This document shows positions 44,327 through 62,361 of a stretch of 64,000 nucleotides of DNA, piece after piece (the first letter of the stretch is position 1; each line of letters begins with the position of its first letter). The notes under the pieces were generated by a model. The model was not told the origin of the DNA and ran no database searches. It was given only the letters and a program-made list of their open reading frames with translations. The stretch comes from an uncultured Gemmatimonadales bacterium. GTDB lineage: Bacteria > Verrucomicrobiota > Kiritimatiellia > CAXMRT01. A program made the translations under genes and the position numbers. The stretch spans positions 5,233 through 69,232 of the forward strand of contig CAXMRT010000214.1 in NCBI GenBank assembly GCA_964196025.1, written 5' to 3'.

Positions 44327-44408
44327 GGGTAAGACGCACTACACAAGATCCACCACCACACGAATACTCTTTGCTAACCTACGGGTGCTGGTGTAGTGCG
44401 TGTGACCC
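44327..44408. repeat. Palindromic intergenic element, copy 1 (21-bp inverted arms)
   Basis: GGGTAAGACGCACTACACAAG (44327-44347) and CTGGTGTAGTGCGTGTGACCC (44388-44408) flank a 40-nt spacer. Followed by a conserved tail …TCTTGACGAAGGAGGACAGGGCTCGCGCCCCCGC (to about 44458). Confidence 0.7.
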
Positions 44409-44495
44409 AGTCTATCCGCCGGAGTCTTGACGAAGGAGGACAGGGCTCGCGCCCCCGCAACCAAATCCCTCATGCAGAGTGAGCGCCTTCCCGCT

Positions 44496-44579
44496 GGGTA
44501 AGACGCACTACACAAGAGCCACCGCCACCGGAATACTTGTTTTGTTAATCTATGGGTGCTTGTGTAGTGCGTGTGACCC
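44496..44579. repeat. Palindromic intergenic element, copy 2
   Basis: Identical left arm (44496-44516) and near-identical right arm CTTGTGTAGTGCGTGTGACCC (44559-44579). Spacer ~80% identical to copy 1. Followed by the GGGCTCGCGCCCCCGC tail. Confidence 0.7.
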
Positions 44580-44681
44580 GTAGGGCTCGCGCCCCCGCTT
44601 ACCCAATCACGCAACCCACGTGAGCCGCTCCCCGCTAGCCTACAAACGGTGCTCCACACGCTCCAGCCAGCGTGCTAGTAT

Positions 44682-45560
44682 ATGCCTATGCACCTTATCA
44701 AATGCGCGATCATCCCCGCTCTGATTCTCCAGCTTCTATGTTCGGGTTGCCAGTACGGCCCGAAACGGGACCAAGGCTCTTTCAAAAGCACAGCACTCAT
44801 GCAGAAAAGCGCCATCGTGGCCTTCACCTACCACGACCTCATCTACCGGCCGGCACAAGGCATGTCGGCATTTCCTGATGGAGGCATTCCAAAATATTTG
44901 AACGACGGCTCCGTGCTCTGCATCTATGATCGCAAACAAGGGAAACTCCAGACATTAATGGATGAAGAGAATACGCTCTGGAGCCACGGTAGTGGTGCGC
45001 TGTACATCGTGACCGCCCGCGGTAACGCCATGGTCGTCAGCCAGTCCGGACAACTGCGAAAAGATCTCGCGACCATCTATACCCGCCATCATATCCTTAA
45101 CATCGCAACGAAGGCCCATGACACCTTTGACCTCAGCGACGACCTGCTTATGCACGGCCGCAAACCGGGTCCGCTCTATCTTGCTGATGACAACGGGACC
45201 CTCGTGATCATCACAAAGGCTCAGGACGCGGAATCTGGCAACAAGGCTATCCCCCAAATATGGGTAAGGCACATGGGGGGAGAGTATCTGCACGCCGGCA
45301 CATCCGCGCACTACCAGAAAACCCTAGGACGGGATGTCATCTACTGGAATCCCTCCGACCGGCAGTACTATGCCTTTCATATGGACGACAAAACCACCCG
45401 CCGCCTTGAGGGTTACCGGCCGCCTACAATGACACAGGTGACCGAAGGCGCTCGCGTCGGTTCGTTAGGCACCACGGTGGATGTGGGCATCCGGACCCAA
45501 GGCACCTGGCACTATCAACCGCTACCCATCACGCCCGACGATGTCAGAAAGAGTGATTGA
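44682..45560 (+). CDS. Hypothetical lipoprotein
   Basis: 292-aa ORF with lipoprotein-like signal (ALILQLLCSGCQ). No recognisable domain. Confidence 0.45.
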   Translation: MPMHLIKCAIIPALILQLLCSGCQYGPKRDQGSFKSTALMQKSAIVAFTYHDLIYRPAQGMSAFPDGGIPKYLNDGSVLCIYDRKQGKLQTLMDEENTLWSHGSGALYIVTARGNAMVVSQSGQLRKDLATIYTRHHILNIATKAHDTFDLSDDLLMHGRKPGPLYLADDNGTLVIITKAQDAESGNKAIPQIWVRHMGGEYLHAGTSAHYQKTLGRDVIYWNPSDRQYYAFHMDDKTTRRLEGYRPPTMTQVTEGARVGSLGTTVDVGIRTQGTWHYQPLPITPDDVRKSD

Positions 45561-45679
45561 TGACTGAAGGAGCTGAAACAGCTCTTTGACAGGCTCACTC
45601 TTCATGCGGACGTAGCGGGTGCATAAAACACACAGATAACCATTGCGGACATCAAGGTCTTTAACATAACCTTATCGGC

Positions 45680-46150
45680 GTGAGTATTCTATCCAAGACG
45701 TGTCTGTACGGATTGCGGGCGATGATTTATCTAGCCGCATCCGAAGACCATAATGATCAGGAATTCGTTTCAGTCCGGAAAATTGCGGATGAATTGGATA
45801 TTTCCTTTCATTTTCTCACCAAAATTTTCCAAACATTGAACAAAGAAGAACTCGTGATCTCCTGCAGGGGCCCAAAAGGAGGCGTCGCGCTTGGTCGCCC
45901 CGCTAAAGATATCGACCTTCTTGACATCATTGAAAAAATCGATGGCTCGCAACGCCTCGACTCCTGTCTGATGGGGCTGCCAACGTGCAGCGATGAGTCC
46001 CCCTGCCCCCTCCACGACCAGTGGAAGGAAAACAGAAAGGGGCTCAAAAAGCTCTTCACTGAATCCAATCTAGGGGAGCTAGTCAGCAACATGAAATCGT
46101 CGAATATCCGGATAAACGAGACGGGTATCATTTCACTGGGCGATGACTAG
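45680..46150 (+). CDS. nsrR: Rrf2-family transcriptional regulator (NsrR/IscR-like, Fe-S cysteines present)
   Basis: N-terminal wHTH (MSILSKTCLYGLRAMIYLA…VSVRKIADELDIS) and three clustered Cys (CLMGLPTCSDESPC). Sits immediately upstream of nirK. Confidence 0.7.
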   Translation: MSILSKTCLYGLRAMIYLAASEDHNDQEFVSVRKIADELDISFHFLTKIFQTLNKEELVISCRGPKGGVALGRPAKDIDLLDIIEKIDGSQRLDSCLMGLPTCSDESPCPLHDQWKENRKGLKKLFTESNLGELVSNMKSSNIRINETGIISLGDD

Positions 46151-46180
46151 AAAAACTCTCTTTTTTCCAACCAATACGGA

Positions 46181-46224
46181 TTGACATTTGACCCATTCTA
46201 GACTAATTAAGATATAAGAGTCTT
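46181..46224 (+). promoter_or_regulatory. Candidate nirK promoter with overlapping palindromic operator
   Basis: TTGACA (46181-46186), 17-nt spacer, TAATTA (46204-46209). The imperfect palindrome AAGATATAAGAGTCTT (46209-46224) overlaps the -10/+1, a position consistent with an Rrf2 repressor site. Pattern match only. Confidence 0.3.
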
Positions 46225-46340
46225 TTATCGGTAATAGTCCTTTCCGCTGGTGGATGGGGCCTGACCCGAAAAACCGAAAAACAGGAGAATCAAACGGCCG
46301 GCACATCCCTGATGTACCGACTGGGAGAGGAAATGGAGTC

Positions 46341-47777
46341 ATGAAAACACGACACTATAAACCAGTAATATTGACCTTGGCCGCTATAATGAGCCTTGGT
46401 TTTGGACTGCAGACCGCAGACGCCCAAATAAAGGGCACAGAAAAGGCCGTTCTATTGAAGGCCCCTCAGGTTCCGCCCGTGATCACGCGAACACACGCCA
46501 CCAAAGTGATCGTTGAGATGGAAGTGAAGGAATATGTCGATAGACTCGCTGATGGTGTTGAGTACACGTTCTGGGGCTTTGGCGGCTTTGTTCCGGGCCC
46601 GTTTATCCGTGTCCGCGAAGGCGATCATGTCGAGTTTCACCTAAACAATCATCCAGATAATAAACTACCGCATAACATCGACCTGCATGCGGTGACTGGA
46701 CCAGGCGGTGGCGCGGCCTCTTCCTTTACCGCTCCCGGGCACAGCTCGACCTTCTCATTCAAGGTCCTCAATCCAGGCGTGTATGTTTACCATTGTGCGA
46801 CTGCACCCGTGGGCATGCATATTGCCAATGGCATGTATGGCCTGATTCAGGTACAGCCCAAGGAAGGCCTGCCTAAGGTTGATAAAGAATACTATGTCAT
46901 GCAGAGCGAATTCTATACAGCAGGCCGCTATGGCGAAAAGGGTCATCAGCCTTTCTCTATGGAAAAAGCGCTGGATGAACGTCCCGACTACGTCGTGTTC
47001 AACGGTTCTGTCGGTGCCTTGGTTGGCGACAATGCCATTAACGCCAAAGTTGGCGAAAACGTGCGCCTGTACGTCGGTAATGGCGGTCCAAACCTTGTCT
47101 CCTCTTTCCATGTGATTGGAGAGATTTTCGACAAAGTGAACATTGAAGGCGGCGACCTGGTGAACAAGAACGTTCAGACAACACTTGTCCCTGCCGGTGG
47201 AGCTGCCGTGGTGGAATTTAAGGTTGATGTTCCTGGAACGTTCATTATTGTGGATCACTCCATCTTCCGGACATTCAACAAGGGCTCCCTAGGCATGTTG
47301 AAAGTGACTGGAAAGGCTAACCCAGATCTGTATTCCGGAAAAACCGAGGACAGCGTCTATCAGCCTGAAGGTCAGCCAACGCTTACTACGCCACCTGCTA
47401 AGGTCCAGAAAATGACCAAGGCAGAACGCATAAAAACCGGCGAAAGGCTGTACAACACCAGCTGCTTTGCCTGCCATCAGTCCAACGGGAAAGGATTACC
47501 CAAGATTTTCCCTCCTCTGGCAAAATCCGATTACCTGCTCGCGGATGTTGATCGCGCGATCAGCGGAATTATCTATGGACAAAAAGGTCCTATGAAGGTA
47601 AATGGTGAACCGTACAACATGATCATGACACCCGTAAATCTCACAGATGACGAGATCGCAAGTGTCATGACCTTCGTCCTCAACAACTGGGGCAACAGTG
47701 GAGACGCGGTCACACCCGAGCGCGTGACGAAGATCCGCAAAAAAGGCCCTGCAAAAAATGCAGTAACGTCGAAATAG
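46341..47777 (+). CDS. nirK: Copper-containing nitrite reductase NirK with C-terminal cytochrome c domain
   Basis: ATG 46341 follows GAGAGG and gives signal [28 protein letters not shown]. Type-1/type-2 Cu blocks (…[10 protein letters not shown]…, [21 protein letters not shown]). C-terminal CxxCH (CFACHQ, ~47464-47478) marks a fused class I cytochrome c. Confidence 0.85.
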
Positions 47778-47787
47778 GGAGAAGAGC

Positions 47788-48603
47788 TTGAACCTCAGTC
47801 GGTCAATAGTCGCACTTGTTTTATTGACTGCTGGGGCGGCGGGCGCGGGTGATCTACCCGCACCGCCGAAAGCGCCTCTGGGAATGGTCTACATTGCTCC
47901 CGGCGAATATGAACCCCTTTTTAAATCAGAAGGAAAGAAAGCGGTCTCCGCTTTCTTCATGGACCGCCACCCCGTAACGAACGCCGAGTATCTCGACTTT
48001 GTAAAAGTAAATCCAAAGTGGCGAAAGTCACGTGTCAGACGCATTTTCGCGGACCACTCCTACCTAACCAAATGGGTGTCCGACGACACGCCAGGTCCAG
48101 ATCCTGAAAAATCACTAAACAGTCCTGTTGTTCATATCTCATGGCACGCCGCTCGTGCTTACGCCAAATGGAAGGGCAAGCGAATCCCCTCTCAGGCAGA
48201 ATGGGAGTATGCGGCTTCTGCCAGCAAAACGAAGCCCAACGGAAAAGAAGATCCTGACCATTACCGCTATATCCTCGATTGGTATTCACGCCCTACGCCT
48301 AAAGTAATGCCCGCGGTGGGCTCCACCTATAAAAACTACTGGGGGCTTTACGACATGCATGGCCTAGTCTGGGAGTGGGTGTCCGATTTCAACACCGCTC
48401 TAGTCACAGGAGAGTCACGGGGAGATGCCGGCTTGGAGCGTCAACTTTTTTGCGGGAGCGGCTCGGTCGGCGCCTCTGACTTCAAAGATTACGCCGCCTT
48501 CATGCGCTACGCTCTACGCAGTAGCTTAGAAGCTGATTTTACCACGGCCAATCTCGGTTTTCGTTGTGCAAAAAGTATCAACATACCCAAAAAGAAAGAC
48601 TAA
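47788..48603 (+). CDS. nirV: NirV (formylglycine-generating-enzyme/SUMF1-family protein)
   Basis: TTG start after a GGGAG RBS, 10 nt past nirK. FGE-sulfatase fold blocks (…VHISWHAARAYAKWKGKRIPSQAEWEYAA…, YWGLYDMHGLVWEWV). The nirK-nirV arrangement is well known. Confidence 0.65.
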   Translation: MNLSRSIVALVLLTAGAAGAGDLPAPPKAPLGMVYIAPGEYEPLFKSEGKKAVSAFFMDRHPVTNAEYLDFVKVNPKWRKSRVRRIFADHSYLTKWVSDDTPGPDPEKSLNSPVVHISWHAARAYAKWKGKRIPSQAEWEYAASASKTKPNGKEDPDHYRYILDWYSRPTPKVMPAVGSTYKNYWGLYDMHGLVWEWVSDFNTALVTGESRGDAGLERQLFCGSGSVGASDFKDYAAFMRYALRSSLEADFTTANLGFRCAKSINIPKKKD

Positions 48604-48605
48604 CC

Positions 48606-49232
48606 ATGAAACACGTTATCCCTTTTTCTCTCATCGCACTCGCCTTGGGGTGCACCTCATGCTCGACCATCCCACAAGAAGCAGCCTGCTGCAAGGCGCC
48701 ACTAGAAAGCGTCCAAAATGCACCGCTCTCACAGGAGTCGCTCTATCACCTGGAATCAACCTGGACGAGTCAGGAGGCCAAGACCATTTCACTGGATCAC
48801 TTCAAAGGCTCGCCAGTTTTGCTGACCATGTTCTTCAGCAATTGCGAATATGCCTGCCCGATTCTGGTTGAAAAAATGCGGTCAACCGTGGAGCAGCTGT
48901 CAGCGGATGACGCCTCACAACTACAGAAGGTCCTCATTTCTTTTGATGTGGAACGAGACACCCCTGCCGTTTTGAAAAAACACGCGATTGATCGCGGCTT
49001 AAGCAACACCGACTGGACCCTGCTGCACGGTAGCGCGGATGATGTCCTTGAAATCGCGGCGGTTCTGGGCATTCGTTATCGCCAAGAAAAGAATGGCAGT
49101 TTCGCCCATTCCAATATCATCACCCTGCTGGATAGAGATGGGTCCATCGCCTATCAGTTGAAAGGTCTAGAGTCCGAGTCCGAAGACTTACTCAAGGCCA
49201 TTAAAGAGGTCTGCGCGGATTCGAAACGCTGA
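48606..49232 (+). CDS. SCO1/SenC-family copper chaperone (thioredoxin fold), lipoprotein
   Basis: ATG 48606 lies 2 nt after the nirV stop. Lipobox (LALGCTSCS) and CxxxC copper site (MFFSNCEYACP). Confidence 0.7.
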   Translation: MKHVIPFSLIALALGCTSCSTIPQEAACCKAPLESVQNAPLSQESLYHLESTWTSQEAKTISLDHFKGSPVLLTMFFSNCEYACPILVEKMRSTVEQLSADDASQLQKVLISFDVERDTPAVLKKHAIDRGLSNTDWTLLHGSADDVLEIAAVLGIRYRQEKNGSFAHSNIITLLDRDGSIAYQLKGLESESEDLLKAIKEVCADSKR

Positions 49233-51260
49233 TCAGTCACTCGGTTCGTGACTCTTGGGTGCATCGGGATCCTGCACACCTCGCCCATCATAATCAAACA
49301 GCACAATCTCCCCCGCGCGGACCTGCAACTCATTGTCATATAAAACGCGTGGCTCGGTCACACCATCAACGATAAGAAGCGCGCGGACATCATGGGTCCC
49401 CGGCTCAAGCTCCAGGTCATGACCAAACAAGACAAGTCGACCATCACGGCGAGGCTTCAAATGCTCACGCAAGGCCTCCTGTCCGTCTAGCTCGAGTAGC
49501 AAGGTATAATCAATCGGAACGCGAACGACTTTTTGAGGTAGCCGCATATGGGCAGGAGTCGAACTCAACTCTTCCTCGGTCCATGCCCGCGCAGACTCAA
49601 CACCGTTTCCCGGTAACTCAAGCATCAGTCTGAAAACGCCTTCTGTGGGCGCTGTCCCCAAGTCCTTCATACTCATGGCCGCGATCGCCAGTACGATGAC
49701 AGAATGCGCAATAGTGGTTCGCACAATAGACGACCAGCGCGCGGTCGGTGTTAAGGCTCCGCTCCCCGACTCCGCTGATTTTTCAAGCAAGCCTCTCACA
49801 TGGGTCTCTATCAGGCCATACTCAGAACCCGCAGCGGAGATCAGCTGTATGCGCGTAAGATCCGTATCTTGCGACAAATGCGGGCCCGCTCTCCCCAACA
49901 ATCGCCCCAGCGCAAGTTCATGGCCGCGCCGATTCACACAATTTTCCTCCGGACAGGACACCACTAGAACCGATGGGACTTTTTTCATGAGATGCTCAAC
50001 CGCGTAGGCATGCACGCTGCCTGTACAGGCCACCGCATAAGGACTTATTGAAGGATATCGGAGCGACAATTTGTGAACCGTATTCTGCATGCTGCGATTC
50101 GACTCACAATAGATCAGGCATAACTCCGGGATTTTCTCACCCAAGGCATCAAGATAGCGCTCAGCTGCCTGCAGTTGATCATCACCCTTGCGGCCCGGGG
50201 GACCCACATTATAATCGTCACAACTACCCGCACACAGACCGCAACTGACACACTTGGCGGGATTGACCATCGCAAATTGACGACGACTGCCATCGTCCCG
50301 CTTCAGCATATCAATGGCCTCAAACGGACAATCTTTATAACACTGCATGCAACCAGCACAGGCGTCCGTATCTACCGTAGATTTGCGTTCCGGCCGCCGG
50401 ACACGCCACCACCAAGGCACCATCAGAAGCCCCAGTGAGCATACAGTAAAACCCACGGCAACAACGCCCGGCCCCCAACGGTCCAACAGCGGCAACCAGA
50501 AACCGGAAAATAAATCCGTTGGAAGCCGTCCAGTTAAAGCCTGCAGATCGGCTTTTGGTAAAAGTGGGGCCGAGATCAGAACCGAGCAAATAAGCAATAC
50601 AACCAACAAGGGCACAAACACACTATTCATCGGCAGCCAACGCGCACGATTAAGCCGCGCGGTATGTATCCAGATACCGGTAACCATCACAAGGGGTATC
50701 GCCACATGCAGAAACAGGTTCATAAAGAAAAATGACCCCGTAAGAGGTTCTGCCCCGCTGAACGTACGCATAATCTGGTGATTAAGAAAGGGCGCCAAGG
50801 CGATCATTCTAGCGCCGGCATTTGCCAGCCATTGCCCATGGGTGTCCCACGCCATGACATACCCGGTCCACGTCGACAACATCAACGCAAACAATAAAAC
50901 CGACCCACTGATCCAGGCCAATACACGTGGCCCCCAAGTCCGCCCCTGTATCATCATTTGCACAACATGAAAAACAACCGCCACGATGGCGATATCCGTA
51001 GCATAACGATGCATCGCCCGAATCCAACGGCCGAGATAGGCCTGATCATGGATGCGTTGCAACGACTCATACGGGTGTGACACGCTGTAAAAAAAGACTA
51101 GATATAGTCCCGTAACAAGGAGGAGCAGGAGCATCCCGACAGCCAAGGTTCCGCTACGATAAAGTGGGTTGTAGGCCGAACGGTACAGCGTGTCAAATAA
51201 ACGGATCAGCGGTGCAGTTAGGCCTTCAAGCAGGCGTTGAAGGATCGTACGTTGTTTCAT
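49233..51260 (-). CDS. Membrane fusion protein: cytochrome b N-terminal-like domain + 2x[4Fe-4S] ferredoxin domain + C-terminal domain of unknown function
   Basis: About five TM helices with conserved His pairs (…RAMHRYATDIAIVAVVFHV…; …FLHVAIPLV…). Two Cys clusters (CAGCMQCYKDCP…, CVSCGLCAGSCDD), then a ~300-aa soluble domain. Its stop codon abuts the stop of the convergent sco gene (shared TGATCA). Confidence 0.55.
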   Translation of the reverse strand: MKQRTILQRLLEGLTAPLIRLFDTLYRSAYNPLYRSGTLAVGMLLLLLVTGLYLVFFYSVSHPYESLQRIHDQAYLGRWIRAMHRYATDIAIVAVVFHVVQMMIQGRTWGPRVLAWISGSVLLFALMLSTWTGYVMAWDTHGQWLANAGARMIALAPFLNHQIMRTFSGAEPLTGSFFFMNLFLHVAIPLVMVTGIWIHTARLNRARWLPMNSVFVPLLVVLLICSVLISAPLLPKADLQALTGRLPTDLFSGFWLPLLDRWGPGVVAVGFTVCSLGLLMVPWWWRVRRPERKSTVDTDACAGCMQCYKDCPFEAIDMLKRDDGSRRQFAMVNPAKCVSCGLCAGSCDDYNVGPPGRKGDDQLQAAERYLDALGEKIPELCLIYCESNRSMQNTVHKLSLRYPSISPYAVACTGSVHAYAVEHLMKKVPSVLVVSCPEENCVNRRGHELALGRLLGRAGPHLSQDTDLTRIQLISAAGSEYGLIETHVRGLLEKSAESGSGALTPTARWSSIVRTTIAHSVIVLAIAAMSMKDLGTAPTEGVFRLMLELPGNGVESARAWTEEELSSTPAHMRLPQKVVRVPIDYTLLLELDGQEALREHLKPRRDGRLVLFGHDLELEPGTHDVRALLIVDGVTEPRVLYDNELQVRAGEIVLFDYDGRGVQDPDAPKSHEPSD

Positions 51261-51265
51261 GTGGT

Positions 51266-52156
51266 TCAGTTCTCGCTTTCAAGTCTTCGGACGGCATCCG
51301 TTAACCATTGTACCCCTGGACTGTTAAAGGTATACGCGATGCGCCCTTGCGCATCCAATACATAGACCATCGGCGGATGATAAACATCCCCGTTCTGTTC
51401 ATTGCGACTAATCGGTACCTTGTACTCCCTTAGCACATTCAGTACCTCGTCAATCTCACCGGTATAAAATCGTGTTAACGGCCCCATTTCCCATTTCCCA
51501 GCAAACGATGTCATTTCGGTTTGACGGTCGCGCCAAGGGTCGAGCGACACCACCAGCATGGGCGTGTTATCATTAAGCTCCTCAGACGCTTCCTTCAGAT
51601 CATTAAGTAATGCCGGGCAAACAGTCGTACAATGCGAAAAGGCAAAGGTTAAAATAAGCGGACGCCCCTTGAAATCTGCAGGCCCGGTCACCTCTCCATG
51701 TTGATCATGCAGTCGGAAGTTAAATGCCGGATCCTGGGTCCGCAGATAATGCTCCGGTAACGGCTCTGTGTTACCGGACCCGTAATCGGCCCGCGCAAGT
51801 GCCAGGCCGACGGTCACCCGCTCAGACACCCATACCGCTTCAGTCGACACGCCAAGCACGCACAAAAGAATGGCGACCTTGCCAAGCCACGACCCATAGA
51901 GGGCTGCGCCCCCACTCTTCAACTCATCACGATAGACGAGGATAAGGGCCAGCAACAAGCTGAGCGGACTGCCAATCAGGACCGTCCAGCCGTAGGGCTC
52001 CGGTAAGCCTGACTCCGTGCGGCCGAAGCAGGCAGTCTGAGCCTGTAGCATCCACTCAGGGGTGGACTCCGGCATGCTGAAGAAGGCAAACCCCCAGAGA
52101 ACCATCGTGGCCGCTAGCCAGCCGGCCACAAGAAACATAGACGCTAGAGGGGGCAT
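51266..52156 (-). CDS. SCO1/SenC-family copper chaperone with N-terminal membrane domain
   Basis: Three N-terminal TM helices, then a thioredoxin-fold domain with FAFSHCTTVCP (CxxxC). Confidence 0.65.
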   Translation of the reverse strand: MPPLASMFLVAGWLAATMVLWGFAFFSMPESTPEWMLQAQTACFGRTESGLPEPYGWTVLIGSPLSLLLALILVYRDELKSGGAALYGSWLGKVAILLCVLGVSTEAVWVSERVTVGLALARADYGSGNTEPLPEHYLRTQDPAFNFRLHDQHGEVTGPADFKGRPLILTFAFSHCTTVCPALLNDLKEASEELNDNTPMLVVSLDPWRDRQTEMTSFAGKWEMGPLTRFYTGEIDEVLNVLREYKVPISRNEQNGDVYHPPMVYVLDAQGRIAYTFNSPGVQWLTDAVRRLESEN

Positions 52157-52165
52157 GACAAGCGC

Positions 52166-53896: not shown

Positions 53897-53905
53897 TGTA
53901 GCCTC

Positions 53906-54454
53906 CTACTCTTCCACAATGACTTTGCCAACCATCAAATGATGACCCAGTCCGCAGAACTCGTTACAAATAATTTTATACTCACCAACATCATTGGGCG
54001 TCATCTTCAACCCGTAGTCATAGCCGGGAACAACTTGAATATTGACGTTCACAGGAAACAGACTAAATCCGTGATTCAAATCTGAACTCGAAAGATGAAT
54101 CGTATATTCGGCTCCCTTTTTGAGCTTCAGAATAGGTGTCCACTGCCACATCCTGCCGAGAAGATACACATCACTCCCTGGTGGCGGTTCGACAATTGGA
54201 ATTCCCTGCTCTTCTCCGACTTTGTACTCTTCCGTGAACGCCATAACTCTCTCGACGAATTTCGCCGGTTCGACTTTGGCTCGGATGCCGGTTGGGTTCT
54301 GGCCACCCAAGAGATGCCAGATAGGCATCATCGCAAAAAGCACCAGACACCAAATAAAGGATATGGTCACCCATATCTTTTCCTGCTTGGCTGCGGGCTT
54401 CCACCACACTCCCTCTGGGGGAACTATCCCAGAATGCATTTTTCTATCAGACAT
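53906..54454 (-). CDS. Heme-copper oxidase subunit II-like cupredoxin with intact CuA motif
   Basis: N-terminal TM helix, then a cupredoxin domain with H…C-x-E-x-C-G-x2-H-x2-M (SDLNHGFS…ICNEFCGLGHHLMVGK). Confidence 0.7.
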   Translation of the reverse strand: MSDRKMHSGIVPPEGVWWKPAAKQEKIWVTISFIWCLVLFAMMPIWHLLGGQNPTGIRAKVEPAKFVERVMAFTEEYKVGEEQGIPIVEPPPGSDVYLLGRMWQWTPILKLKKGAEYTIHLSSSDLNHGFSLFPVNVNIQVVPGYDYGLKMTPNDVGEYKIICNEFCGLGHHLMVGKVIVEE

Positions 54455-54469
54455 ATTAACTCCTTAGAA

Positions 54470-54619
54470 TCAGGGTAGTTTCGCCTCTGGAAGGCTTAAA
54501 ATTTCAACCATTCCCCAAATGGTGTAAAACGCAAACATCACCACCATTCCCAACACCAGCAAGAGGATGGGCTTCTCCATCATGCGCTGCCCGAAGGGTA
54601 TTTCTTCATTATCCGACAT
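54470..54619 (-). CDS. Unannotated 49-aa single-TM peptide, first gene of the oxidase-like operon
   Basis: ATG (54619) follows GGGGA. Translation MSDNEEIPFGQRMMEKPILLLVLGMVVMFAFYTIWGMVEILSLPEAKLP. Ends 15 nt before the subunit II start. Below the 60-aa cutoff of the ORF track. Confidence 0.4.
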   Translation of the reverse strand: MSDNEEIPFGQRMMEKPILLLVLGMVVMFAFYTIWGMVEILSLPEAKLP

Positions 54620-54804
54620 TTCATCCCCTTTGCTTATTTCCTAGTTTCATACCTTTTTATCTTAAATTAGCCCTAAGTCAACAAAATGTCTCAATAAAAA
54701 TGATTTTTGCGCCCGAATGACGCTTCGGGGCTCCTCGGAAACGAGAGCACCGACATTCACCAGGGCCAGCCCCCCAGAAGTTACTCTCTTCTGACCAACA
54801 GATG

Positions 54805-54874
54805 CTTGTGTAGTGCGTATGACCCAGTCTATCCGCCGGCGTCTTGACGAAGGAGGAAAGGGCTCGCGCCCCCA
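54805..54874. repeat. Palindromic intergenic element, copy 3 (truncated: right arm + tail only)
   Basis: CTTGTGTAGTGCGTATGACCC (54805-54825) plus a tail AGTCTATCCGCCGGCGTCTTGACGAAGGAGGAAAGGGCTCGCGCCCCC that is ~90% identical to 44409-44455. Confidence 0.7.
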
Positions 54875-54933
54875 TTTACCAAATGAACTCACCAGGGACG
54901 CCCCCGAAGACCCTACCAAAAAGGTGCCCTAGC

Positions 54934-54975
54934 TGTTCGATGTTCGATGTTCAACGTTCGATGTTCAACGTTCAA
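54934..54975. repeat. Tandem heptamer array YGTTCRA x6
   Basis: TGTTCGA TGTTCGA TGTTCAA CGTTCGA TGTTCAA CGTTCAA, read directly from the sequence. Confidence 0.8.
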
Positions 54976-55024
54976 CCGTCATCCCCTCCTCTCTGTACCG
55001 CTCGAAAGGACGCGTCAAACAGTC

Positions 55025-56539
55025 CTACTCCAACTCGTACTCTTTCCGTAAGGTCGCGAGCTTTCCCTTCATCAACTCGAACTGAGCCTGATATTCCGGG
55101 TTTCGGGAGAGGTCAGATACTTCGGTGGGATCCGTTTGTAGGTCAAACAAGTTGTATCCATCATCGGAATAGAAGTTGATCAGCTTGTAGCGCTCATCTC
55201 GCACCCCTTCATGCCGCGGCACGCCATGCTCACCTCCGTGCTCATAGTAGTGATAATACACCGCATCCCGCCACGGTGCTTTCACATCCGCAAAGAGGGG
55301 AAGCAGGCTCTCCCCTTGCACGTCTTCCGGAATGTCCAAACCCGCAGCATCAAGAAAGGTTGGCGCATAATCGATGTTCTGGATCAACTGTTCATACCGA
55401 GTCCCTGCGTTGATTCGCTCCGGCCACCGAATCAAAAACGGCATCTTCATGGACTCTTCAAACATCCACCGCTTGTCGTACCACCCATGTTCTCCCAGAT
55501 AAAACCCCTGGTCAGAACTATAAATAACAATCGTGTTCTCTTTCAATCCGTTCTCATCAAGATAGCTCAGCACACGGCCCACGTTCTCATCAACGGAATC
55601 AATACAACGCAAATAGTTCTTCACGTAACGCTGATACTTCCAGCGAAGGAGATCCTTGCCGGTCGGGGCCTCCTCAAGGAATGCGTTGTTGCGCGGTATC
55701 CAAACAGCATCCCATGCCTTCTGCTGCTCAGGATTCATTCGGAGATATTCGTAGTCCTTCTTTCGTCGCTCCCAGCGGCTAGCAAACGGAACCTTCTGCC
55801 GCACCCGCAGGTCATAGCTATAGTAGAGATACTTATCGAGCGACATTCTGTTTTTCTTGAGCGTCTTGCTCCGATTGCTGTAATCATCAAACAAAGTCGC
55901 GGGCTCGGGAATATCCACACCTTCATACTTCGCTAGATGCTTCAGGTCCGGCGCCCACGTACGATGCGGCGCCTTATACTGACAAAGAAGCAAGAATGGC
56001 TTTTCCTCATCCCGCTCATCCAACCACTTCAAACTCATGTCCGTCACCAGCGTCGTCGAGTAACCCGTGTATCTGGTCTGGCTTGTCGCGGTCATAAAGA
56101 CAGGGTTATAGTAGGAACCCTGATCAGGAAAAACTTCCCACGAGTCGAAACCCGTCGGCTCAGACTTTAGATGCCACTTGCCAAACACGCCGGTTTGATA
56201 ACCGCCCTTTTGCAAGGCTTGCGGGAAAGTGAACTGCGTATTATCGAATGAGGCCTTACCGAGATTGCCATAATAGTGGTTCTTGTGACTCATTTTACCC
56301 GTCACCACACTTGCTCGACTCGGGCCGCATATGGAATTGTTACAAAACGAGTTGATGAACACCGCACCTTCATCAGCCAGTCGATCAATATTCGGCGTCT
56401 TGTTTATTTTCGACCCATACGCACCAATCGATTGACAGGCATGATCATCGGTAAAAATGAAAAGAATATTCGGCTGCTTCCCAAATGAAACCAACGCGAA
56501 AAACGCCCCCACAATCATCAACAAACATCTAACCCACAT
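55025..56539 (-). CDS. S1-family sulfatase (Cys-type), secreted
   Basis: Signal peptide, ILFIFTDDHA, and formylglycine motif CGPSR (SICGPSRASVVTGK). Confidence 0.8.
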   Translation of the reverse strand: MWVRCLLMIVGAFFALVSFGKQPNILFIFTDDHACQSIGAYGSKINKTPNIDRLADEGAVFINSFCNNSICGPSRASVVTGKMSHKNHYYGNLGKASFDNTQFTFPQALQKGGYQTGVFGKWHLKSEPTGFDSWEVFPDQGSYYNPVFMTATSQTRYTGYSTTLVTDMSLKWLDERDEEKPFLLLCQYKAPHRTWAPDLKHLAKYEGVDIPEPATLFDDYSNRSKTLKKNRMSLDKYLYYSYDLRVRQKVPFASRWERRKKDYEYLRMNPEQQKAWDAVWIPRNNAFLEEAPTGKDLLRWKYQRYVKNYLRCIDSVDENVGRVLSYLDENGLKENTIVIYSSDQGFYLGEHGWYDKRWMFEESMKMPFLIRWPERINAGTRYEQLIQNIDYAPTFLDAAGLDIPEDVQGESLLPLFADVKAPWRDAVYYHYYEHGGEHGVPRHEGVRDERYKLINFYSDDGYNLFDLQTDPTEVSDLSRNPEYQAQFELMKGKLATLRKEYELE

Positions 56540-56684
56540 CTCTCACCTCCCAAAAACGATCCCAAACACTACCTCCCCATAGGAACAAGGGCAAGTGATC
56601 AGTCGCCTCCCCCCACTCCCGACGAGTTCTGGTCAGGTCCGAGACACCACGAAGGTCCCGCAGCGCGGCCGCCGACCGCGTCGT

Positions 56685-57077
56685 TTAGATCGAAGCGACA
56701 ATCATCGCGCCGATAGTGAGGCTCCACATACTCAACACATTCACCAGTGGAACAATCCAAGCGATGTGCCATGGCTTACGTTTTGGGAAAAAATAGACCC
56801 CCAGAATCCCCCAGGCCACACACCCATAGAGAATGATATATCCACTCAGCATCATTTCTTCGTCAGCGCTGTCTCCCACAAGGAAAAGACTCACCGGCCA
56901 GAACAAGCCCATCAACGCAATCACTGTCAACACGGGATGAAATACCGTTCGCCTCAACTGCAAAACAATCGACGTCCCCAACAACACAACCGTAAGCCCC
57001 AAACCCACCAGCCCAAAAAGCAAGTACCCATCATACCCCGCATAAATATGCGCAGGCCACATAAGCTCATCAATCAT
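56685..57077 (-). CDS. Hypothetical integral membrane protein
   Basis: 130-aa ORF with four hydrophobic helices. No family recognised. Confidence 0.4.
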   Translation of the reverse strand: MIDELMWPAHIYAGYDGYLLFGLVGLGLTVVLLGTSIVLQLRRTVFHPVLTVIALMGLFWPVSLFLVGDSADEEMMLSGYIILYGCVAWGILGVYFFPKRKPWHIAWIVPLVNVLSMWSLTIGAMIVASI

Positions 57078-57093
57078 TCATCCCACCTCCCGG

Positions 57094-57160
57094 TCAGTAT
57101 TCAGTGGTCAGTATTCAGTGGCCAGTATTCAGTGGCCAGTAAACAGTAATCAGTAATCAG
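57094..57160. repeat. 14-bp tandem repeat (YCAGTATTCAGTGG-like) about 4.8 copies
   Basis: TCAGTATTCAGTGG x2, CCAGTATTCAGTGG, CCAGTAAACAGTAA, TCAGTAATCAG. Confidence 0.8.
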
Positions 57161-57162
57161 AG

Positions 57163-57500
57163 CCGTCCGCACAACCCAAGCTAACGCATAACCCAATCCA
57201 GCTCGCCCACACACAGGCGAGCTCCTCCCGTGTTTTACGTCCGCCCAAAGGCGAGCGTAAATCGTGCCCCTTATGGGTGGCGCTTCGCGTCCCGCAGGGA
57301 TTTGTATTTCATGGGGCGGTGTTGTATTAGCTCCAAGCTTGCCACGCCGAACCGTCCGCACAACCCAAGCTAACGCATAACCCAAATCCAGCTCGCCCAA
57401 ACTCAGGCGAGCTCCTCCCGTGTTTTACGTCCGCCCAAAGGCGAGCGTAAATCGTGCCCCCTATGGGTGGCGCTTCGCGTCCCGCAGGGATTTTTTGTTG
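57163..57500. repeat. 189-bp period direct tandem duplication (two near-identical ~150-bp units) with internal hairpins
   Basis: Unit 1 spans 57163-57351 and unit 2 runs from 57352 to ~57500; over 95% identical across CCGTCCGCACAACCCAAGCTAACGCATAACCCAA…GGGTGGCGCTTCGCGTCCCGCAGGGATTT. Each unit contains the hairpin AGCTCGCC-(8 nt)-GGCGAGCT. A partial third copy sits at ~57633-57680. Confidence 0.8.
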
Positions 57501-57676
57501 GGGAGCCTGTGTTGCGTCAGATCCAAGGCGCTGATTGAATCGCTGCACTGGTGTGCGCGTTTCAGTCTGCAACGCAGGAGATGATGTGACACAGGCTCCC
57601 CAATAAAAAACGAAGCGCCACCCATTCGTGACCCAAGCCCCCACCCAAGCTAACGCAGAACCCAAGCTCTACGCCC

Positions 57677-58129
57677 TCAAGCGCCAACGGCCCGCGACAT
57701 TAGGTAGTGCTCACCAATCGTCGGTATCTCAAACGCCTCACCATGCGTCTCAAACCCCGCGCCCACATAGAAACCCTGCGCCGCCACCCGCGCATTGCAC
57801 CACAAGCGCGTCGCTCCAGCCTCAACCACATGCGCAACACAAGCCTCCAACACCGCTCGTCCAATACCCTGCCCTTGCAACTCCAAATCTACCGCCATGC
57901 CCCGCAAGCGCCAGACATCGGCCCCTGCAAACTGCTCATGCTCCTCACCAAACACCGAGCCGACGCCTACCAAATCATCATCCATCCACGCGCCAACATG
58001 CATCGCGCGCGCAGCATAATCATTGGGAAACACACTCTCCGACTCGGGCAAGCCTGGTCGCAAAATCTCACATCGCAAAGGGAGCGTCTGCTCAACCGTA
58101 ATCTGGGTAACCATCACTGAGCGACTCAT
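57677..58129 (-). CDS. GNAT-family N-acetyltransferase
   Basis: Acetyl-CoA binding block (RLRGMAVDLELQGQGIGRAVL). ATGA overlap with the upstream sulfatase-family gene. Confidence 0.7.
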   Translation of the reverse strand: MSRSVMVTQITVEQTLPLRCEILRPGLPESESVFPNDYAARAMHVGAWMDDDLVGVGSVFGEEHEQFAGADVWRLRGMAVDLELQGQGIGRAVLEACVAHVVEAGATRLWCNARVAAQGFYVGAGFETHGEAFEIPTIGEHYLMSRAVGA

Positions 58130-59589
58130 GCAAACGCTTCCGGATACTTCTCGACCAACAAGTCGGCGGAGTCACCGCGCCCCGTAACACGCAGACGCTC
58201 CACGTAGGGAGGCAAGTGCTCTAGCCGAGCATGATAAGGACCGCCCTCAGCCATGACTGACACCATCGGATCAATCCCGTCTGGTACCGACGCTAACTGC
58301 TCACGCGTCCAACTCTCCAACATTCCCGCGGCTGTCGCACATACATCTGGCATGGTTTTCGCCAAGTCCACCTGCTCATGTGGATCCTCAACAATATTGA
58401 AAAGCATTTCTTCGGGAAACAGATGATAGCCGTCATGCCAGGTACGCATATACAAGTAGTCATCAAACCGCACGCTGCGCTGACAGACATGCGCAAACTG
58501 TCCCATCACTAAAAATTCTTGGCCCTGCGACACGTCTTCTGTCACCGTGCCCGCATAACTCGACCCATCCCACTGGGGATGATGCGATTGCCCCAACAAG
58601 TCCGCCAGCGTCGGCAACCAGTCGATGTGATAATGCAAATCTTTATCGCTGGCGCCCTGCCGTCCACCCGGCCACTTCACAATCATCGGCACTCGACACG
58701 TCGCCTGGTCCGCCGTCGCATGCTCAGAATAAAGCCCGAGCTCGCCCTGATTCTCACCATGGTCAGCCGACACCACAATCACAGTGTCCTCATAAACCCC
58801 AAGCTCTTTCAATTTCGCAACGACCATCCCGATATGCTGATCCGCATACGCAACCCCGCAATCATAGCCATCAATATGTCGCTTCAGATCGGCCATATCC
58901 TTCAGCGCACCTAGATGCCGCGGATAATCATCAAACTCGTCGCTGTTGTACATGGTGATCTCTTGAGCCGTATGCGGCCCAGGCATCATGCGATGTTTCT
59001 CGAAGGTCTCCGGAGTCAACCACTCGGGGATCGGGTCGTCTTCAAAAGGATTGCCAAATTCTTCGGGCGCACGGAAGAAGGTGTGCGGATCCCAGTAATT
59101 CACGTGCATGTACCAGTTCTCTTCGGTACCGCGCTCATCCAAAAATTTCAGTACCCCCGGCGTCACATCTTCCGCCGACTCCATTCCACCCTTACCCGTG
59201 TTGTGGATCTCATTGAATCCCGCATAGAATTGGAACGCGGAATGACGCTCCGCAAACGGACTGAATAACGCTGTGTGACACCCAGCTCGACGCGCAATGG
59301 TCGCCAAGGCAGCCTTCTCGTTATCGCTCTGAAACCGGCGCGTAGCACCCTGCACCCGCAGATCAGCAGCGGCACCGCCATGACCCACCGCCCCGTTCTT
59401 AATACCGAAGGTGCCGGTTGTGATCGCGGTGCGACTAGGCAAGCACGGTGCGTCGGTCACATAATAGTTATCATAACGCACGCCCTCTTCAGCAATCGCG
59501 TCGATTTCTGGTGAGGTGTTGCGGTGATAGCCATAACAGCCCAAATGATCAGGCCGCAAGGAATCAACATCTATATAGACAATTCGCAT
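58126..59589 (-). CDS. Sulfatase-family (alkaline-phosphatase superfamily) hydrolase lacking a signal peptide
   Basis: The sulfatase metal-binding/formylglycine region is present (VDSLRPDHLGCYG…, DAPCLPSRTAITTG), but the protein begins directly with the catalytic domain (MRIVYIDVDS…). Confidence 0.75.
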   Translation of the reverse strand: MRIVYIDVDSLRPDHLGCYGYHRNTSPEIDAIAEEGVRYDNYYVTDAPCLPSRTAITTGTFGIKNGAVGHGGAAADLRVQGATRRFQSDNEKAALATIARRAGCHTALFSPFAERHSAFQFYAGFNEIHNTGKGGMESAEDVTPGVLKFLDERGTEENWYMHVNYWDPHTFFRAPEEFGNPFEDDPIPEWLTPETFEKHRMMPGPHTAQEITMYNSDEFDDYPRHLGALKDMADLKRHIDGYDCGVAYADQHIGMVVAKLKELGVYEDTVIVVSADHGENQGELGLYSEHATADQATCRVPMIVKWPGGRQGASDKDLHYHIDWLPTLADLLGQSHHPQWDGSSYAGTVTEDVSQGQEFLVMGQFAHVCQRSVRFDDYLYMRTWHDGYHLFPEEMLFNIVEDPHEQVDLAKTMPDVCATAAGMLESWTREQLASVPDGIDPMVSVMAEGGPYHARLEHLPPYVERLRVTGRGDSADLLVEKYPEAFA

Positions 59590-59683
59590 CGGGAAAACCT
59601 ATCAGTCTACGGCGCCTTCCACAAGATTACTTCTGTGGAAGCGCCTCCGAAAATTTACGCGCGCATCAAGACCTGTCGCGTAC

Positions 59684-60361
59684 TCAGTCTAAGATTTTAA
59701 TCTTAATGTTTTTGTATGACACGTCCGCATTGTGATCCTGCAGGCCAATATGCCCCTTCGCAGTTTCGCCATAGCCTTTTGCCTTGCTCCACTTACTGCC
59801 CGCAATGCGCTTCTTCCAGTCATCGCTGCCAATCTTATAGGAGTATATTTTCTTGTCGTTGAACCAGTGGGTCGCTTCACCATCCACGATCCGGATGCGA
59901 ACCGAGTTCCACTCGCGTGGATGAAACACTTTCTCGCCTTCCACTTCGTAAAGATCATATAAGCTAGCCAAGGACTTAGGACCTTTTCCGATAAGCCGCT
60001 CGACCTGCATCTCTGGTGCTACCCTAAAAATAGGGCCCGTGAGGCTTGAATCTACGCGAATGAAAATTCCGCTATTACCGGTCGTCTTCCAGTCAATTTT
60101 GAGCTCATAATTCTCGTAAGCCTCAGCCGTATATGCATCCCCAGCACCCTTGGCTACGCGGCTCAACGCACCATCCTTCACAACCCAGCCACCCTCAGTC
60201 AACGGCTTCTTCGTCTTCCAGGCATTCCACCCCTTCATGGTCTTCCCATCAAAGAGCAACTTCCAGCCGTCCTTCGCCTCTTGCGGACTCAACGTATTAT
60301 CTTCCTCAGCCCCAACCGAAACACCCAACAACAACACAAGCGCAATAATCAAACTCTTCAT
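59684..60361 (-). CDS. DUF1080 (3-keto-disaccharide hydrolase-like) secreted protein
   Basis: Signal peptide; DGWKLLFDGKTMKGW and GHIGLQDHNADVSYKNIKI blocks. Confidence 0.7.
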   Translation of the reverse strand: MKSLIIALVLLLGVSVGAEEDNTLSPQEAKDGWKLLFDGKTMKGWNAWKTKKPLTEGGWVVKDGALSRVAKGAGDAYTAEAYENYELKIDWKTTGNSGIFIRVDSSLTGPIFRVAPEMQVERLIGKGPKSLASLYDLYEVEGEKVFHPREWNSVRIRIVDGEATHWFNDKKIYSYKIGSDDWKKRIAGSKWSKAKGYGETAKGHIGLQDHNADVSYKNIKIKILD

Positions 60362-60526
60362 CTCATTCTCCTATAAATGTCCAAAACAAAAACCCTACCT
60401 ATCCCAGCCCCCAAGCGCAAGACACAAGCCCCCACCGTCAAACTCCCCTCACTTGGACATTGGGCATTCCGTGTTGGATATTGGATATTGATTTCCCATC
60501 TCCCAAAAACACCCCGTGAGGCCCCG

Positions 60527-60565
60527 TCCACTTCTCCAGCTCTCCAGCTCTTCAGTTCTTCACTT
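60527..60565. repeat. CCCGTCCACTTC + TCCAGCTC octamer tandem array
   Basis: GTCCACTTC TCCAGCTC TCCAGCTC TTCAGTTC TTCACTTC. Related to the array at 63236-63287. Confidence 0.7.
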
Positions 60566-62140
60566 CCCCAGCGCCGGCACCTTATAAAGCACCCGCAATC
60601 GTTCCAGCTCTTTCTTCAGATCCACAACCTTCGTCGCAAGCTCCGGATTGCCGTACTGGTTATTCATCTCATTCGGGTCGTTCTTCAGGTCATACAATTC
60701 GAACTCTTCTCCGTCAGGAACATTCTTGCCGTAAAACTTGATCAGCTTGTAGCGCTCACCGGCAACACCTTCATGCAGTCGCACACTATGACCGCCAGGA
60801 TACTCGTAATAGTGATAGTACAAACTCTTGCGCCAATCATCCGGACGCTTGCCCTTAAGGAGCGGAACCAGACTCTTCCCTTGCATATCGTCGGGAATCG
60901 GCGCATCAGCAAGATCAAGGAAGGTCTCGGCGAAATCAATGTTCTGAACAAGATCCTTATTACGAGTACCCGCCTTAATTACTCCTGGCCACATAGCTAG
61001 AAGCGGGGTGCCAAAAGATTCCTCGTACATAAATCGCTTATCAAACCAGCCATGCTCACCTAAGTAGAAACCCTGATCGGAGGAATACATCACGATGGTG
61101 TTCTTCTCGAGACCGCTCTCTTTCAGGTAATCAAGAATGATGCCGACGCTTTCGTCAATGCTCTTGGCGCAGCGCAGGTAGTCTTTGACGTAGCGCTGAT
61201 ACTTCCACTGCACAATCTCTTTCTCGGTCATTGATTTTTCTTTTTCGAAAAAGGCCTTATTGCGCGGATCATAGGCCGCATCCCAACTCCTGCGGGCGTC
61301 AGGAGTCATGCGAAAATAGGCTCCCGGTTCACCTCTCGGCAATTGTGTTGATTTCGCATAACGCTTGAAACCCGCATCCTTATTGGCCTGATCCCGAATC
61401 TTCAAATCCGCATCGCGCCGCATCGTTTTAGAAATCGTCATGGTTTGACCATGAGCCGCCACACCGCGCGTTGCGTAATCGTCGAACAGGTTGACCGGTT
61501 CCGGAATCGTCACATCATCAAACAAACCCACATGCCGAGGCGCGGCCTTCCAGGTTCGATGAGTCGCTTTGTGATGCACCATCAGCATAAAGGGCTTATC
61601 CTTTTTTCGTCCGGGTGACTTCAACCACTCCAAGGCGCGATCCGTCACAACATCCCCCACATATCCCGTATACTGAGTCGTGCCTTCTTCGGTAATAAAG
61701 GTGGGTTGATAATACGCGCCCTGCCCGGGAAGCACCTCCCAGTAGTCAAAGCCTTGCATCTTTCCAGGCAGATGAATCTTTCCGATCATCACCGTCTGAT
61801 AGCCCGCTTTCTGGAGCAACTTAGGAAAAGTCTGTTGGTCTTGATTAAACGGCCCGCGGTTATCTCTTTTGCCATGTACGTGACTATGCTTGCCCGTAAG
61901 CAAGGTCGCCCGACTAGGAGCGCAAATCGAATTCCCAACATAACAGCGTTCAAAGAGCATGCCCTTCTCAGCCAGTCGATCAATGTTCGGCGTAGGATTC
62001 AGCTTTGCCAATCGACTCCCATAAGCACCGATCGCCTGACGAGTATGATCGTCCGAAAAGATCCAAACAATATTAGGCCGCTCAGCCACCGCAGACCCAG
62101 CCATCCAAAGAAACGAAAAAACCAAGCAAATCACTCTCAT
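60560..62140 (-). CDS. S1-family sulfatase (Cys-type), secreted
   Basis: ATG 62140 is preceded by AAGGGGA and gives signal MRVICLVFSFLWMAGSAVA. The longer ORF to 62326 runs into a repeat element. IVWIFSDDH and CAPSR (SICAPSRATLLTGK). Confidence 0.8.
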   Translation of the reverse strand: MRVICLVFSFLWMAGSAVAERPNIVWIFSDDHTRQAIGAYGSRLAKLNPTPNIDRLAEKGMLFERCYVGNSICAPSRATLLTGKHSHVHGKRDNRGPFNQDQQTFPKLLQKAGYQTVMIGKIHLPGKMQGFDYWEVLPGQGAYYQPTFITEEGTTQYTGYVGDVVTDRALEWLKSPGRKKDKPFMLMVHHKATHRTWKAAPRHVGLFDDVTIPEPVNLFDDYATRGVAAHGQTMTISKTMRRDADLKIRDQANKDAGFKRYAKSTQLPRGEPGAYFRMTPDARRSWDAAYDPRNKAFFEKEKSMTEKEIVQWKYQRYVKDYLRCAKSIDESVGIILDYLKESGLEKNTIVMYSSDQGFYLGEHGWFDKRFMYEESFGTPLLAMWPGVIKAGTRNKDLVQNIDFAETFLDLADAPIPDDMQGKSLVPLLKGKRPDDWRKSLYYHYYEYPGGHSVRLHEGVAGERYKLIKFYGKNVPDGEEFELYDLKNDPNEMNNQYGNPELATKVVDLKKELERLRVLYKVPALGK

Positions 62141-62278
62141 ACAAATCCCCTTAAGTTGAAGAATCACAGTACACACCACCCTCCCAACATTCAACCCCAT
62201 CATACAACCCGCACCCAAACCCGCGTTTACCACAACGCAACCGAGAATACACCCTAACCGCGTGGGCTGCTTCCCTAC

Positions 62279-62361
62279 GGGTAAGCCGCAACTACACCAA
62301 ACCCAACAGCACAGATATGCTCTCATCTAACCTACGGATGCTTGTGTAGTGCGTCTGACCC
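62279..62361. repeat. Palindromic intergenic element, copy 4
   Basis: GGGTAAGCCGCAACTACACCAA (62279-62300) and CTTGTGTAGTGCGTCTGACCC (62341-62361) flank a 40-nt spacer ending …TCTAACCTACGGATG (compare copy 1 …GCTAACCTACGGGTG). Confidence 0.65.

Follow-up and report, generated by a model that had tools for sequence, protein, structure and literature searches.

GTAG-tagged hairpin dimers in an uncultured Verrucomicrobiota bacterium as a probable new family of REP/BIME-type repeats

In a 64,000-nucleotide stretch of the genome of an uncultured bacterium (deposited as a Gemmatimonadales bacterium, assigned by GTDB to the Kiritimatiellia of the Verrucomicrobiota; GenBank assembly GCA_964196025.1, contig CAXMRT010000214.1, positions 5,233 to 69,232), hereafter called the window, a first-pass annotation had described four copies of a ~82-bp palindromic element and proposed that they are either cis-regulatory or 5′-leader RNAs or members of a MITE (miniature inverted-repeat transposable element) family. 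We found that the repeating unit is a hairpin of ~33 nt flanked by an unpaired GTAG tetranucleotide, and that the elements probably (at a probability of about 0.7) represent a GTAG-tagged repetitive extragenic palindrome (REP) whose units are paired into dimers, as in bacterial interspersed mosaic elements (BIMEs) or REP doublets forming hairpins (REPINs). This is a new sequence family of a known class of repeat, and the kind has already been reported in the Planctomycetes-Verrucomicrobia-Chlamydiae (PVC) group, in Opitutus terrae. Such repeats, selfish or domesticated, are commonplace, and there is no indication here that the family serves as an RNA dedicated to gene control.

The repeating unit and its arrangement

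The presence of four copies with a common orientation was borne out by the positions of the arms (Table 1) and by the number of motif matches. With up to 3 mismatches, the arm motif GTGTAGTGCGTNTGACCC matched six times in the window compared to 0.12 expected matches; none of 100 shuffled sequences reached six, and all six matches fell on the sites described before. The four copies represent only three independent loci, because copies 1 and 2 form one contiguous cluster. The sequence AGGGCTCGCGCCCCC, part of the conserved tail, was found without mismatch at 44442, 44582, and 54859, and GGGCAGGCGCCCAC takes its place in copy 4.

The true unit could be recognised because in relatives on four other contigs the arms point apart, and each arm is then followed by its own complementary strand. 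The ~33-nt unit opens with GTGTAG plus one base, followed by a 7-bp stem, a bulged A, and CCC; behind a loop, GGG leads into the closing strand (pattern GTGTAGTGCG...CCC/GGG). When folded on the strand carrying GTAG, it forms 7 bp, the bulged A, and 3 G-C pairs, leaving GTAG single-stranded on the 5′ side. The loop comprises 3-6 nt, and a long-loop variant has an insert of 34 nt. Two subtypes occur, Y on the plus strand and Z on the minus strand, whose GTAG ends are turned towards each other across a spacer of 46-48 nt (~50 nt between the GTAG tetranucleotides). From this arrangement arise the arms of 21 bp and the palindrome of 82 bp. The inverted arms thus exist but had been misparsed, as they are the 5′ GTAG-bearing halves of two units on opposite strands. 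The same holds true for the tail, whose sequence GGGCTCGCGCCCCC is the 3′ half of the hairpin of the plus-strand unit. Left of copies 2 and 4, the 3′ strands of the Z hairpins are seen as GGGAAGGCGC and GGGAAGCAGC. A palindrome is seen as well, but the intact units run beyond 82 bp and, according to the covariance model, span ~113 nt (44481-44594 and 62264-62376, the latter being a clean 113-nt dimer). Stem positions 5 and 7 differ between Y and Z, which makes the long palindrome imperfect and the dimer a heterodimer. The alignment of the four copies showed that the spacer is conserved within this genome.

The extra block reported for two copies was confirmed as a 34-nt sequence (AGTCTATCC...GGAGGA) at 44409-44442 in copy 1 and 54826-54859 in copy 3. 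It lies within a 92-nt stretch of 89% identity (repeat family D4) and is an insertion into the Y loop that extends the stem in the DNA fold. A linker of 26 nt joins the first two dimers to one BIME-like cluster (44296-44594) with the order defective Z, spacer, long-loop Y, linker, Z, spacer, Y. In the defective Z unit of copy 1 (Z1), the 5′ half GTGTAGTGCGTCTTACCC is intact with 1 mismatch to the motif, and no matching 3′ half follows. Copy 3, previously termed truncated, is indeed reduced, but it has decayed rather than simply lost one end: its spacer can be aligned to ~54757, and its left arm has degenerated, reading CTGGTGAAT... where CTTGTGTAG is expected.

Table 1. Units, spacers, and linker of the repeat family in the window. 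Bit scores and E-values refer to the unit covariance model; D1 and D4 are repeat families.
Feature	Position	Strand	Arm	Sequence reading	Evidence
Z unit, copy 1, defective	44296..44344	-	44327-44344		20.9 bits only
Spacer, dimer 1	44345..44390	.		ends partly complementary; between inward GTAG tags	family D1 and four-copy alignment
Y unit, copy 1, long-loop	44391..44454	+	44391-44408	GTGTAG-T-GCGTGTG-A-CCC, 34-nt insert, GGG-CTCGCGC; DNA fold carries stem through insert	40.4 bits, E 1.2e-7
Linker Y1-Z2, 26 nt	44455..44480	.			sequence and covariance-model unit coordinates
Z unit, copy 2, complete	44481..44513	-	44496-44513	GTGTAG-T-GCGTCTT-A-CCC-AGC-GGG-AAGGCGC	49.7 bits, E 6.9e-10
Spacer, dimer 2	44514..44561	.			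family D1 and four-copy alignment
Y unit, copy 2, short loop	44562..44594	+	44562-44579	loop GTA	50.7 bits, E 4e-10
Decayed Z arm and spacer, copy 3	54757..54807	.			D1, 65% identity; D4, 89% over 92 nt to copy 1
Y unit, copy 3, long-loop as in copy 1	54808..54871	+	54808-54825 (only arm)		38.3 bits, E 3.7e-7; family D4
Z unit, copy 4	62264..62297	-	62279-62297 (1-nt insertion)	GTGTAG-TT-GCGGCTT-A-CCC-GTA-GGG-AAGCAGC	47.1 bits, E 2.9e-9
Spacer, dimer 4	62298..62343	.			D1, 79% identity, and four-copy alignment
Y unit, copy 4	62344..62376	+	62344-62361	GCGTCTG-A-CCC-AAC-GGG-CAGGCGC; compensatory C-G vs G-C in copies 1, 2	50.2 bits, E 5.3e-10

Conservation also extends outside the units, over ~12 nt on the 3′ side of the Y hairpin (CCCC-RY-TTACCMAAT; 44596-44607, 54873-54884, and 44456-44467). 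This stretch resembles a fragment of a Z 5′ half and may be a linker motif or the relic of a further unit.

Pairing of the hairpin, relatives, and known repeats

Covariation, which the first-pass annotation had expected of a structured element, was observed when 13 units, taken from the window and from four metagenomic contigs or contigs of metagenome-assembled genomes (MAGs), were aligned. Three of ten pairs showed compensatory changes (U.G/G-C, C-G/G-C, and G-C/U-A). In this small set, in which cells count sequences rather than events, 94.2% of the helix cells were paired compared to 81.8% in shuffled alignments, none of 500 of which reached the observed value. When the 3′ partner was slid by 1-3 columns, pairing dropped to 31-56%. 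The pairing signal is coherent across genomes. GTAG is located one base 5′ of the stem (two bases in three Z-type units) in 12 of the 13 units, GCAG standing in its place in the Z unit of contig L092, and was unpaired in all DNA folds of the GTAG strand.

A search of the window with the unit covariance model, performed with filters off, recovered six complete units with 38-51 bits and the defective Z1, the next-best match scoring 14.6 bits. When the same model was applied to 97 loci, units were found only in five related contigs, apart from a weak pair in L050 and L086. In all four short-loop units, the GTAG strand folded better than its complement by 1.4-2.1 kcal/mol (-5.9 versus -4.5 kcal/mol for Y2, -8.1 versus -6.7 for Y4, -7.1 versus -5.0 for Z2, and -6.6 versus -5.2 for Z4), because stem position 4 is a G.T wobble on this strand and a C.A mismatch on the other.

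Relatives were sought by exact-pattern scans with GTGTAGTGCGTNTKACCC in collections of genome, viral, and metagenome contigs. The genome contigs, from species representatives that do not include the source genome, gave 37 single matches, nearly all of them in a coding motif of an aminotransferase-like gene, and only contig L022 of a Verrucomicrobiota MAG (JAUXCB01) was related. No match was obtained in the viral contigs, and among 59 single matches in metagenome contigs, L051, L080, L092, and L097 proved to be true relatives. Such scans yield mostly coding false positives because the 18-nt REP core coincides with the conserved coding motif of the aminotransferase-like gene, which occurs in many phyla. 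Four further candidates (L046, L048, L062, and L085) do not have the 3′ half of the hairpin and were therefore not counted as relatives. A literature search for the core sequence retrieved only primers and unrelated matches.

The core 20-mer is identical in the window, L022, and the unclassified metagenomic contigs L080 and L097, and one base off in L051 and L092. GTAG lies inside the dimer in the window and in L092 and outside in L022, L080, L097, and L051; L051 and L092 share one loop subfamily, GCAGCG[G/A]AGCGA, yet have opposite dimer polarity. The L022 dimer is situated between queA and tgt, the L051 dimer 20 nt past the stop codon of a folD-like gene, and the L092 dimer past a gene end. 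In L080 and in L097 (1-1571), the dimer is found exactly at the junction of a duplication. The region upstream of tgt and a truncated 5′ part of the gene precede the dimer, and behind it this region and tgt are repeated, which may be either a REP-associated rearrangement or an assembly artefact. Contig L038 (Logan contig, run ERR13301387), an independent assembly of the same organism as the window, starts within the spacer of copy 1 at approximately window position 44364. Such a break is compatible with a repeat or hairpin disrupting the assembly; as hairpins alone can break assemblies, it was not taken as evidence, let alone proof, of copy number.

A REP is a 20-50-nt palindrome preceded by GTAG, and a REP and an inverted REP joined by a linker, often in tandem, make up a BIME (PMC8266576). 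The units described here are stem-loops of ~33 nt with an interrupted 10-bp stem (-5.9 to -8.1 kcal/mol), have the unpaired GTAG at one palindrome end, and are extragenic, all seven units of the window lying in three intergenic regions and the relatives also lying between genes. They form three Z/Y dimers and a four-unit cluster, the dimers are heterodimers, and across the contigs both pairing orientations occur. In group-2 REPs, a bulge interrupts the long stem, and the transposase TnpA_REP requires this bulge for its action on REP DNA in single-stranded form (PMC8266576; structure in PMC3479197). The E. coli REP/BIME system with its group-2 TnpA_REP (RayT/YafM) has the same GTAG 5′ of a long, bulge-interrupted imperfect palindrome, and likewise at least two subtypes (y and z), alternating heterodimers, head and tail linkers, and tandem clusters (PMC8266576, PMC3479197). 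Recognition in that system is strand-specific and acts on single-stranded DNA (PMC8266576, PMC3479197), a feature that the window units would share. The window unit differs in that its sequence is unrelated, its bulge is a single A after 7 bp instead of two mismatches, and its copies lie on the 5′ side of genes.

Further likenesses were found to other systems. Bertels and Rainey regard the REPIN, an inverted REP pair with its spacer, as the replicating unit (PMC3116915, PMC3337134); in Pseudomonas fluorescens two inverted REPs and a spacer form such a long hairpin, with singletons and defective halves arising by decay (PMC3116915, PMC3337134). Pseudomonas REPs are, however, short and nearly perfect (group 3) and present in hundreds of copies, whereas the window has bulged stems, and 3 intact or partial dimers are documented in 64 kb. 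The closest taxonomic comparison is offered by the GTAG-tagged hairpin repeats of two PVC members, families GTAG-17 to GTAG-20 of O. terrae and those of Rhodopirellula baltica, which form head-head and tail-tail dimers and of which several may be present per genome (PMC3733652). The same survey describes dimers with GTAG inside or outside, heterodimer mismatches that may protect long palindromes, spacers of 20-100 bp of which some are complementary-ended, variable long structured loops, and G-T pairing, and it lists several GTAG families in both species (PMC3733652). The O. terrae families differ from the window unit in stem sequence, in their dimer spacers (1-2 bp versus ~50 nt), and in the peptides that they encode when intragenic, such as GTGVPPV and VGPALAAG, which do not match the window unit; the flanks of the Opitutus-like transposase genes that we inspected carry REPs of the GTAGGGTCGGCGCttGCGCCGACC type, which are also unlike it. 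The ends of IS200/IS605 elements resemble the window in their subterminal hairpins, single-stranded recognition by a Y1 HuH transposase, and absence of target-site duplication (PMC8266576, PMC6006769), but in these elements the left end differs from the right, the ends have guide and cleavage sequences, and tnpA and/or tnpB are usually carried, whereas the window has symmetric GTAG-tagged units and no such gene nearby.

Alternative readings and a possible route of spread

Within the window, each copy is located upstream of the start of a minus-strand gene, the distances of copies 1 to 4 to the starts at 44240, 54619, and 62140 being 87, 256, 186, and 139 nt. The earlier claim that the element always precedes minus-strand operons is therefore true for the window but does not extend to the family, since relatives have GTAG outside and are found in the queA-tgt interval or downstream of genes. 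In the window, too, the pattern is weak, as it concerns three loci in a region where minus-strand genes predominate; two of these are divergent intergenic regions and equally upstream of a plus-strand gene.

The common orientation and the position 87-256 nt before gene starts would suit a cis-regulatory structured 5′ leader or a small RNA transcribed with the minus-strand operons, as would the minus-strand tail of copies 1 to 3, which reads GGGC-GCGA-GCCC and forms a hairpin with a GNRA-type tetraloop, and the RNA-fold z-scores of -2 to -3 for copies 2 and 4. The z-scores were, however, alike on both strands, and no Rfam family was detected: the gathering score gave 0 matches in the whole window, and the E-value search of 44200-44700 only chance-level miRNA and snoRNA matches with E-values of at least 0.7. 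As Y and Z are on opposite strands and each hairpin is better on its own GTAG strand, no single transcript holds both in the better form. Moreover, copy 1 is without half of one hairpin and copy 3 without one arm, and the relatives lie downstream of genes or are codirectional with the downstream gene, and they occur in the permuted arrangement. A weaker point is that the sole sigma-70-like site (44298-44270, minus strand; 1 found, 0.5 expected, hence at chance level) lies between copy 1 and its gene and would put the element upstream of the promoter. Since the pattern, moreover, comprises only three loci amid predominantly minus-strand genes, the RNA reading is not supported, and we regard it as improbable. 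The idea of a mobile repeat came closer. A classical MITE, that is, an element of 82-113 bp with terminal inverted repeats (TIRs) of 21 bp moved as double-stranded DNA by a DDE transposase, would account for the long inverted arms, the conserved interior, the several dispersed copies, and the 89% identity over 92 nt between copies 1 and 3. A target-site duplication, as expected for a TIR-type MITE, was found neither at the arm ends (CGCC/AGTC, CGCT/GTAG, CTAC/AACG) nor at the ends of the 113-nt units, which fits mobilisation of the Y1 rather than the DDE type. Conservation continues past the supposed TIRs into the 3′ halves of the hairpins, each arm is half of a local hairpin with covariation, and in relatives the arms point apart, which is impossible for a TIR element. 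Pfam scans of 20 selected open reading frames (ORFs), which did not cover the window exhaustively, and searches for REP-associated tyrosine transposases (RAYTs) revealed no transposase. A MITE in this sense is just as improbable; the elements fit non-autonomous repeats of the REP/REPIN type, a type that is mobilised via single-stranded DNA by a Y1 transposase.

E. coli BIMEs bind integration host factor (IHF) and gyrase (PMC8266576), and one may ask whether the inverted 18-bp motif is an architectural or operator site bound by a nucleoid protein or a regulator at respiratory and sulfatase promoters. Its promoter-proximal location, in two of three cases between divergent genes, the high conservation of the motif, and the conservation of the spacer within the genome are in agreement with this assumption. 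On the other hand, the PA14/azurin gene, the oxidase operon, and the sulfatase gene downstream are functionally unrelated, the relatives adjoin tgt/queA and folD-like genes, and the half-sites are 50 nt apart and in inverse order in relatives. Inspection of the spacers by eye gave no convincing match to the IHF consensus, WATCAANNNNTTR. We therefore consider such a site very improbable as the identity of the element, and a protein-binding role would be secondary to the REP identity and not exclusive of it. A related possibility, to which we likewise assign a low probability, is that the family does not, or does no longer, serve as a substrate of a RAYT and is instead an architectural module that a deep PVC lineage keeps in low copy number close to promoters. 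The conserved, genome-specific spacer of ~50 nt and the two strand-specific GTAG hairpins at its sides would then recruit a nucleoid or regulatory protein or be extruded as a cruciform, and the module would set the activity of adjacent, often divergent, respiratory and sulfatase promoters; if so, the 20-nt core common to the other Verrucomicrobiota MAG would reflect a host function. Readings as an attC site, a CRISPR, or a tRNA-like element were dropped, as none of their signatures is present in the sequence.

If the elements are REP dimers, their spread may be mediated by a single-copy RAYT (TnpA_REP, of the Y1/HuH type) encoded elsewhere in the genome, which would have the units as substrates and recognise the folded single-stranded hairpin via its bulge and GTAG. 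The unit copied would be the dimer together with its spacer. Copies 1 and 3, at loci 10 kb apart, share at least 92 nt at 89% identity including the 34-nt long-loop variant, which fits a copying of this kind, and defective or decayed units are present in Z1 and in the Z arm of copy 3 (Z3). Effects on neighbouring genes would be a secondary by-product.

Several observations weigh against the REP interpretation. The tblastn search with E. coli RayT gave no match in the window and the related loci, and a hidden Markov model built from 25 RAYTs found no RAYT among the six-frame ORFs of the window (best E-value, 0.36). A search with the O. terrae RAYT, whose sequence was rebuilt from the supplement of PMC3733652, led to three homologue loci that were inspected, and the RAYT genes there are bracketed by a different, short and perfect GTAG REP of the GTAGGGTCGGCGCttGCGCCGACC type and its inverted copy. 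A high copy number is not evident in the sequence covered: the 64-kb window contains only seven units, all within 18 kb (44-62 kb), and L022 a single dimer in 8 kb. REPs typically number more than 100 copies dispersed over the genome. The three loci are on the promoter side of genes, two of them divergent, whereas REPs are mainly located between unidirectional and convergent genes (PMC3733652), and according to a rule of thumb by Di Nocera conserved spacers go with the other dimer type, GTAG being inside here. The promoter-side positions, the conserved spacer of ~50 nt between inward GTAG tags, and the 20-nt core shared across contigs are slightly unusual for such repeats. The three homologue loci (L100, 2932-3626; L102, 2967-3575; L104, 2881-3711), each with an Opitutus-like Y1 transposase gene, are textbook REPtrons of another REP family, a REPtron being a single-copy Y1/HuH transposase gene (PF01797) with its own REPs on the flanks, and they show that classical REPtrons exist in such genomes.

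Host, neighbouring repeats, and significance

The host belongs to the PVC group, and the databases contain no close relative of it, as judged from its proteins: HtpG shares 62% identity with a Kiritimatiellia protein and 60% with a Verrucomicrobia protein. The nearest homologue of the PA14/azurin protein is only 42% identical, and for this reason orthologous empty sites could not be compared.

Other intergenic repeats were observed in the last 10 kb of the window. Tandem arrays with 7-8-nt units lie at 54934-54976, 57092-57160, 60527-60571, 62413-62440, 63139-63186, 63248-63288, and 63306-63335, two of them 37-60 nt from a REP dimer. Their units are GTTCGAT/GTTCAAC, GGTCAGT/ATTCAGT, TCCAGTTC/TCCTCAGC, and ATCACCA, and some share flanks (AAAACACCTYAGA). 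Heptamers of the TTCAAGT type are also found in L022 (5495-5525), ~40 nt from the REP dimer of that contig. Arrays of this kind recall the heptamer short tandemly repeated repetitive (STRR) sequences of cyanobacteria. The non-coding region 57160-57665 contains a tandem duplication of ~190 nt (57160-57337 and 57349-57527, 88% identical), a long inverted repeat (~57463-57625), and, at 57629-57665, the 37-nt head motif for a third time; it matched no Rfam family, and only hairpin-type chance matches were obtained, on both strands.

Although no long-standing question becomes newly testable by these results, they improve the annotation, as the palindromes, the tail, and the insert are explained as one REP/BIME-type family instead of being catalogued as a riboswitch-like leader. 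A bulged, group-2-like GTAG REP family is thereby added to those of the PVC superphylum, and should the matching RAYT come to light, the repeats would provide a useful extra data point on the persistence and distribution of REPIN-RAYT systems.

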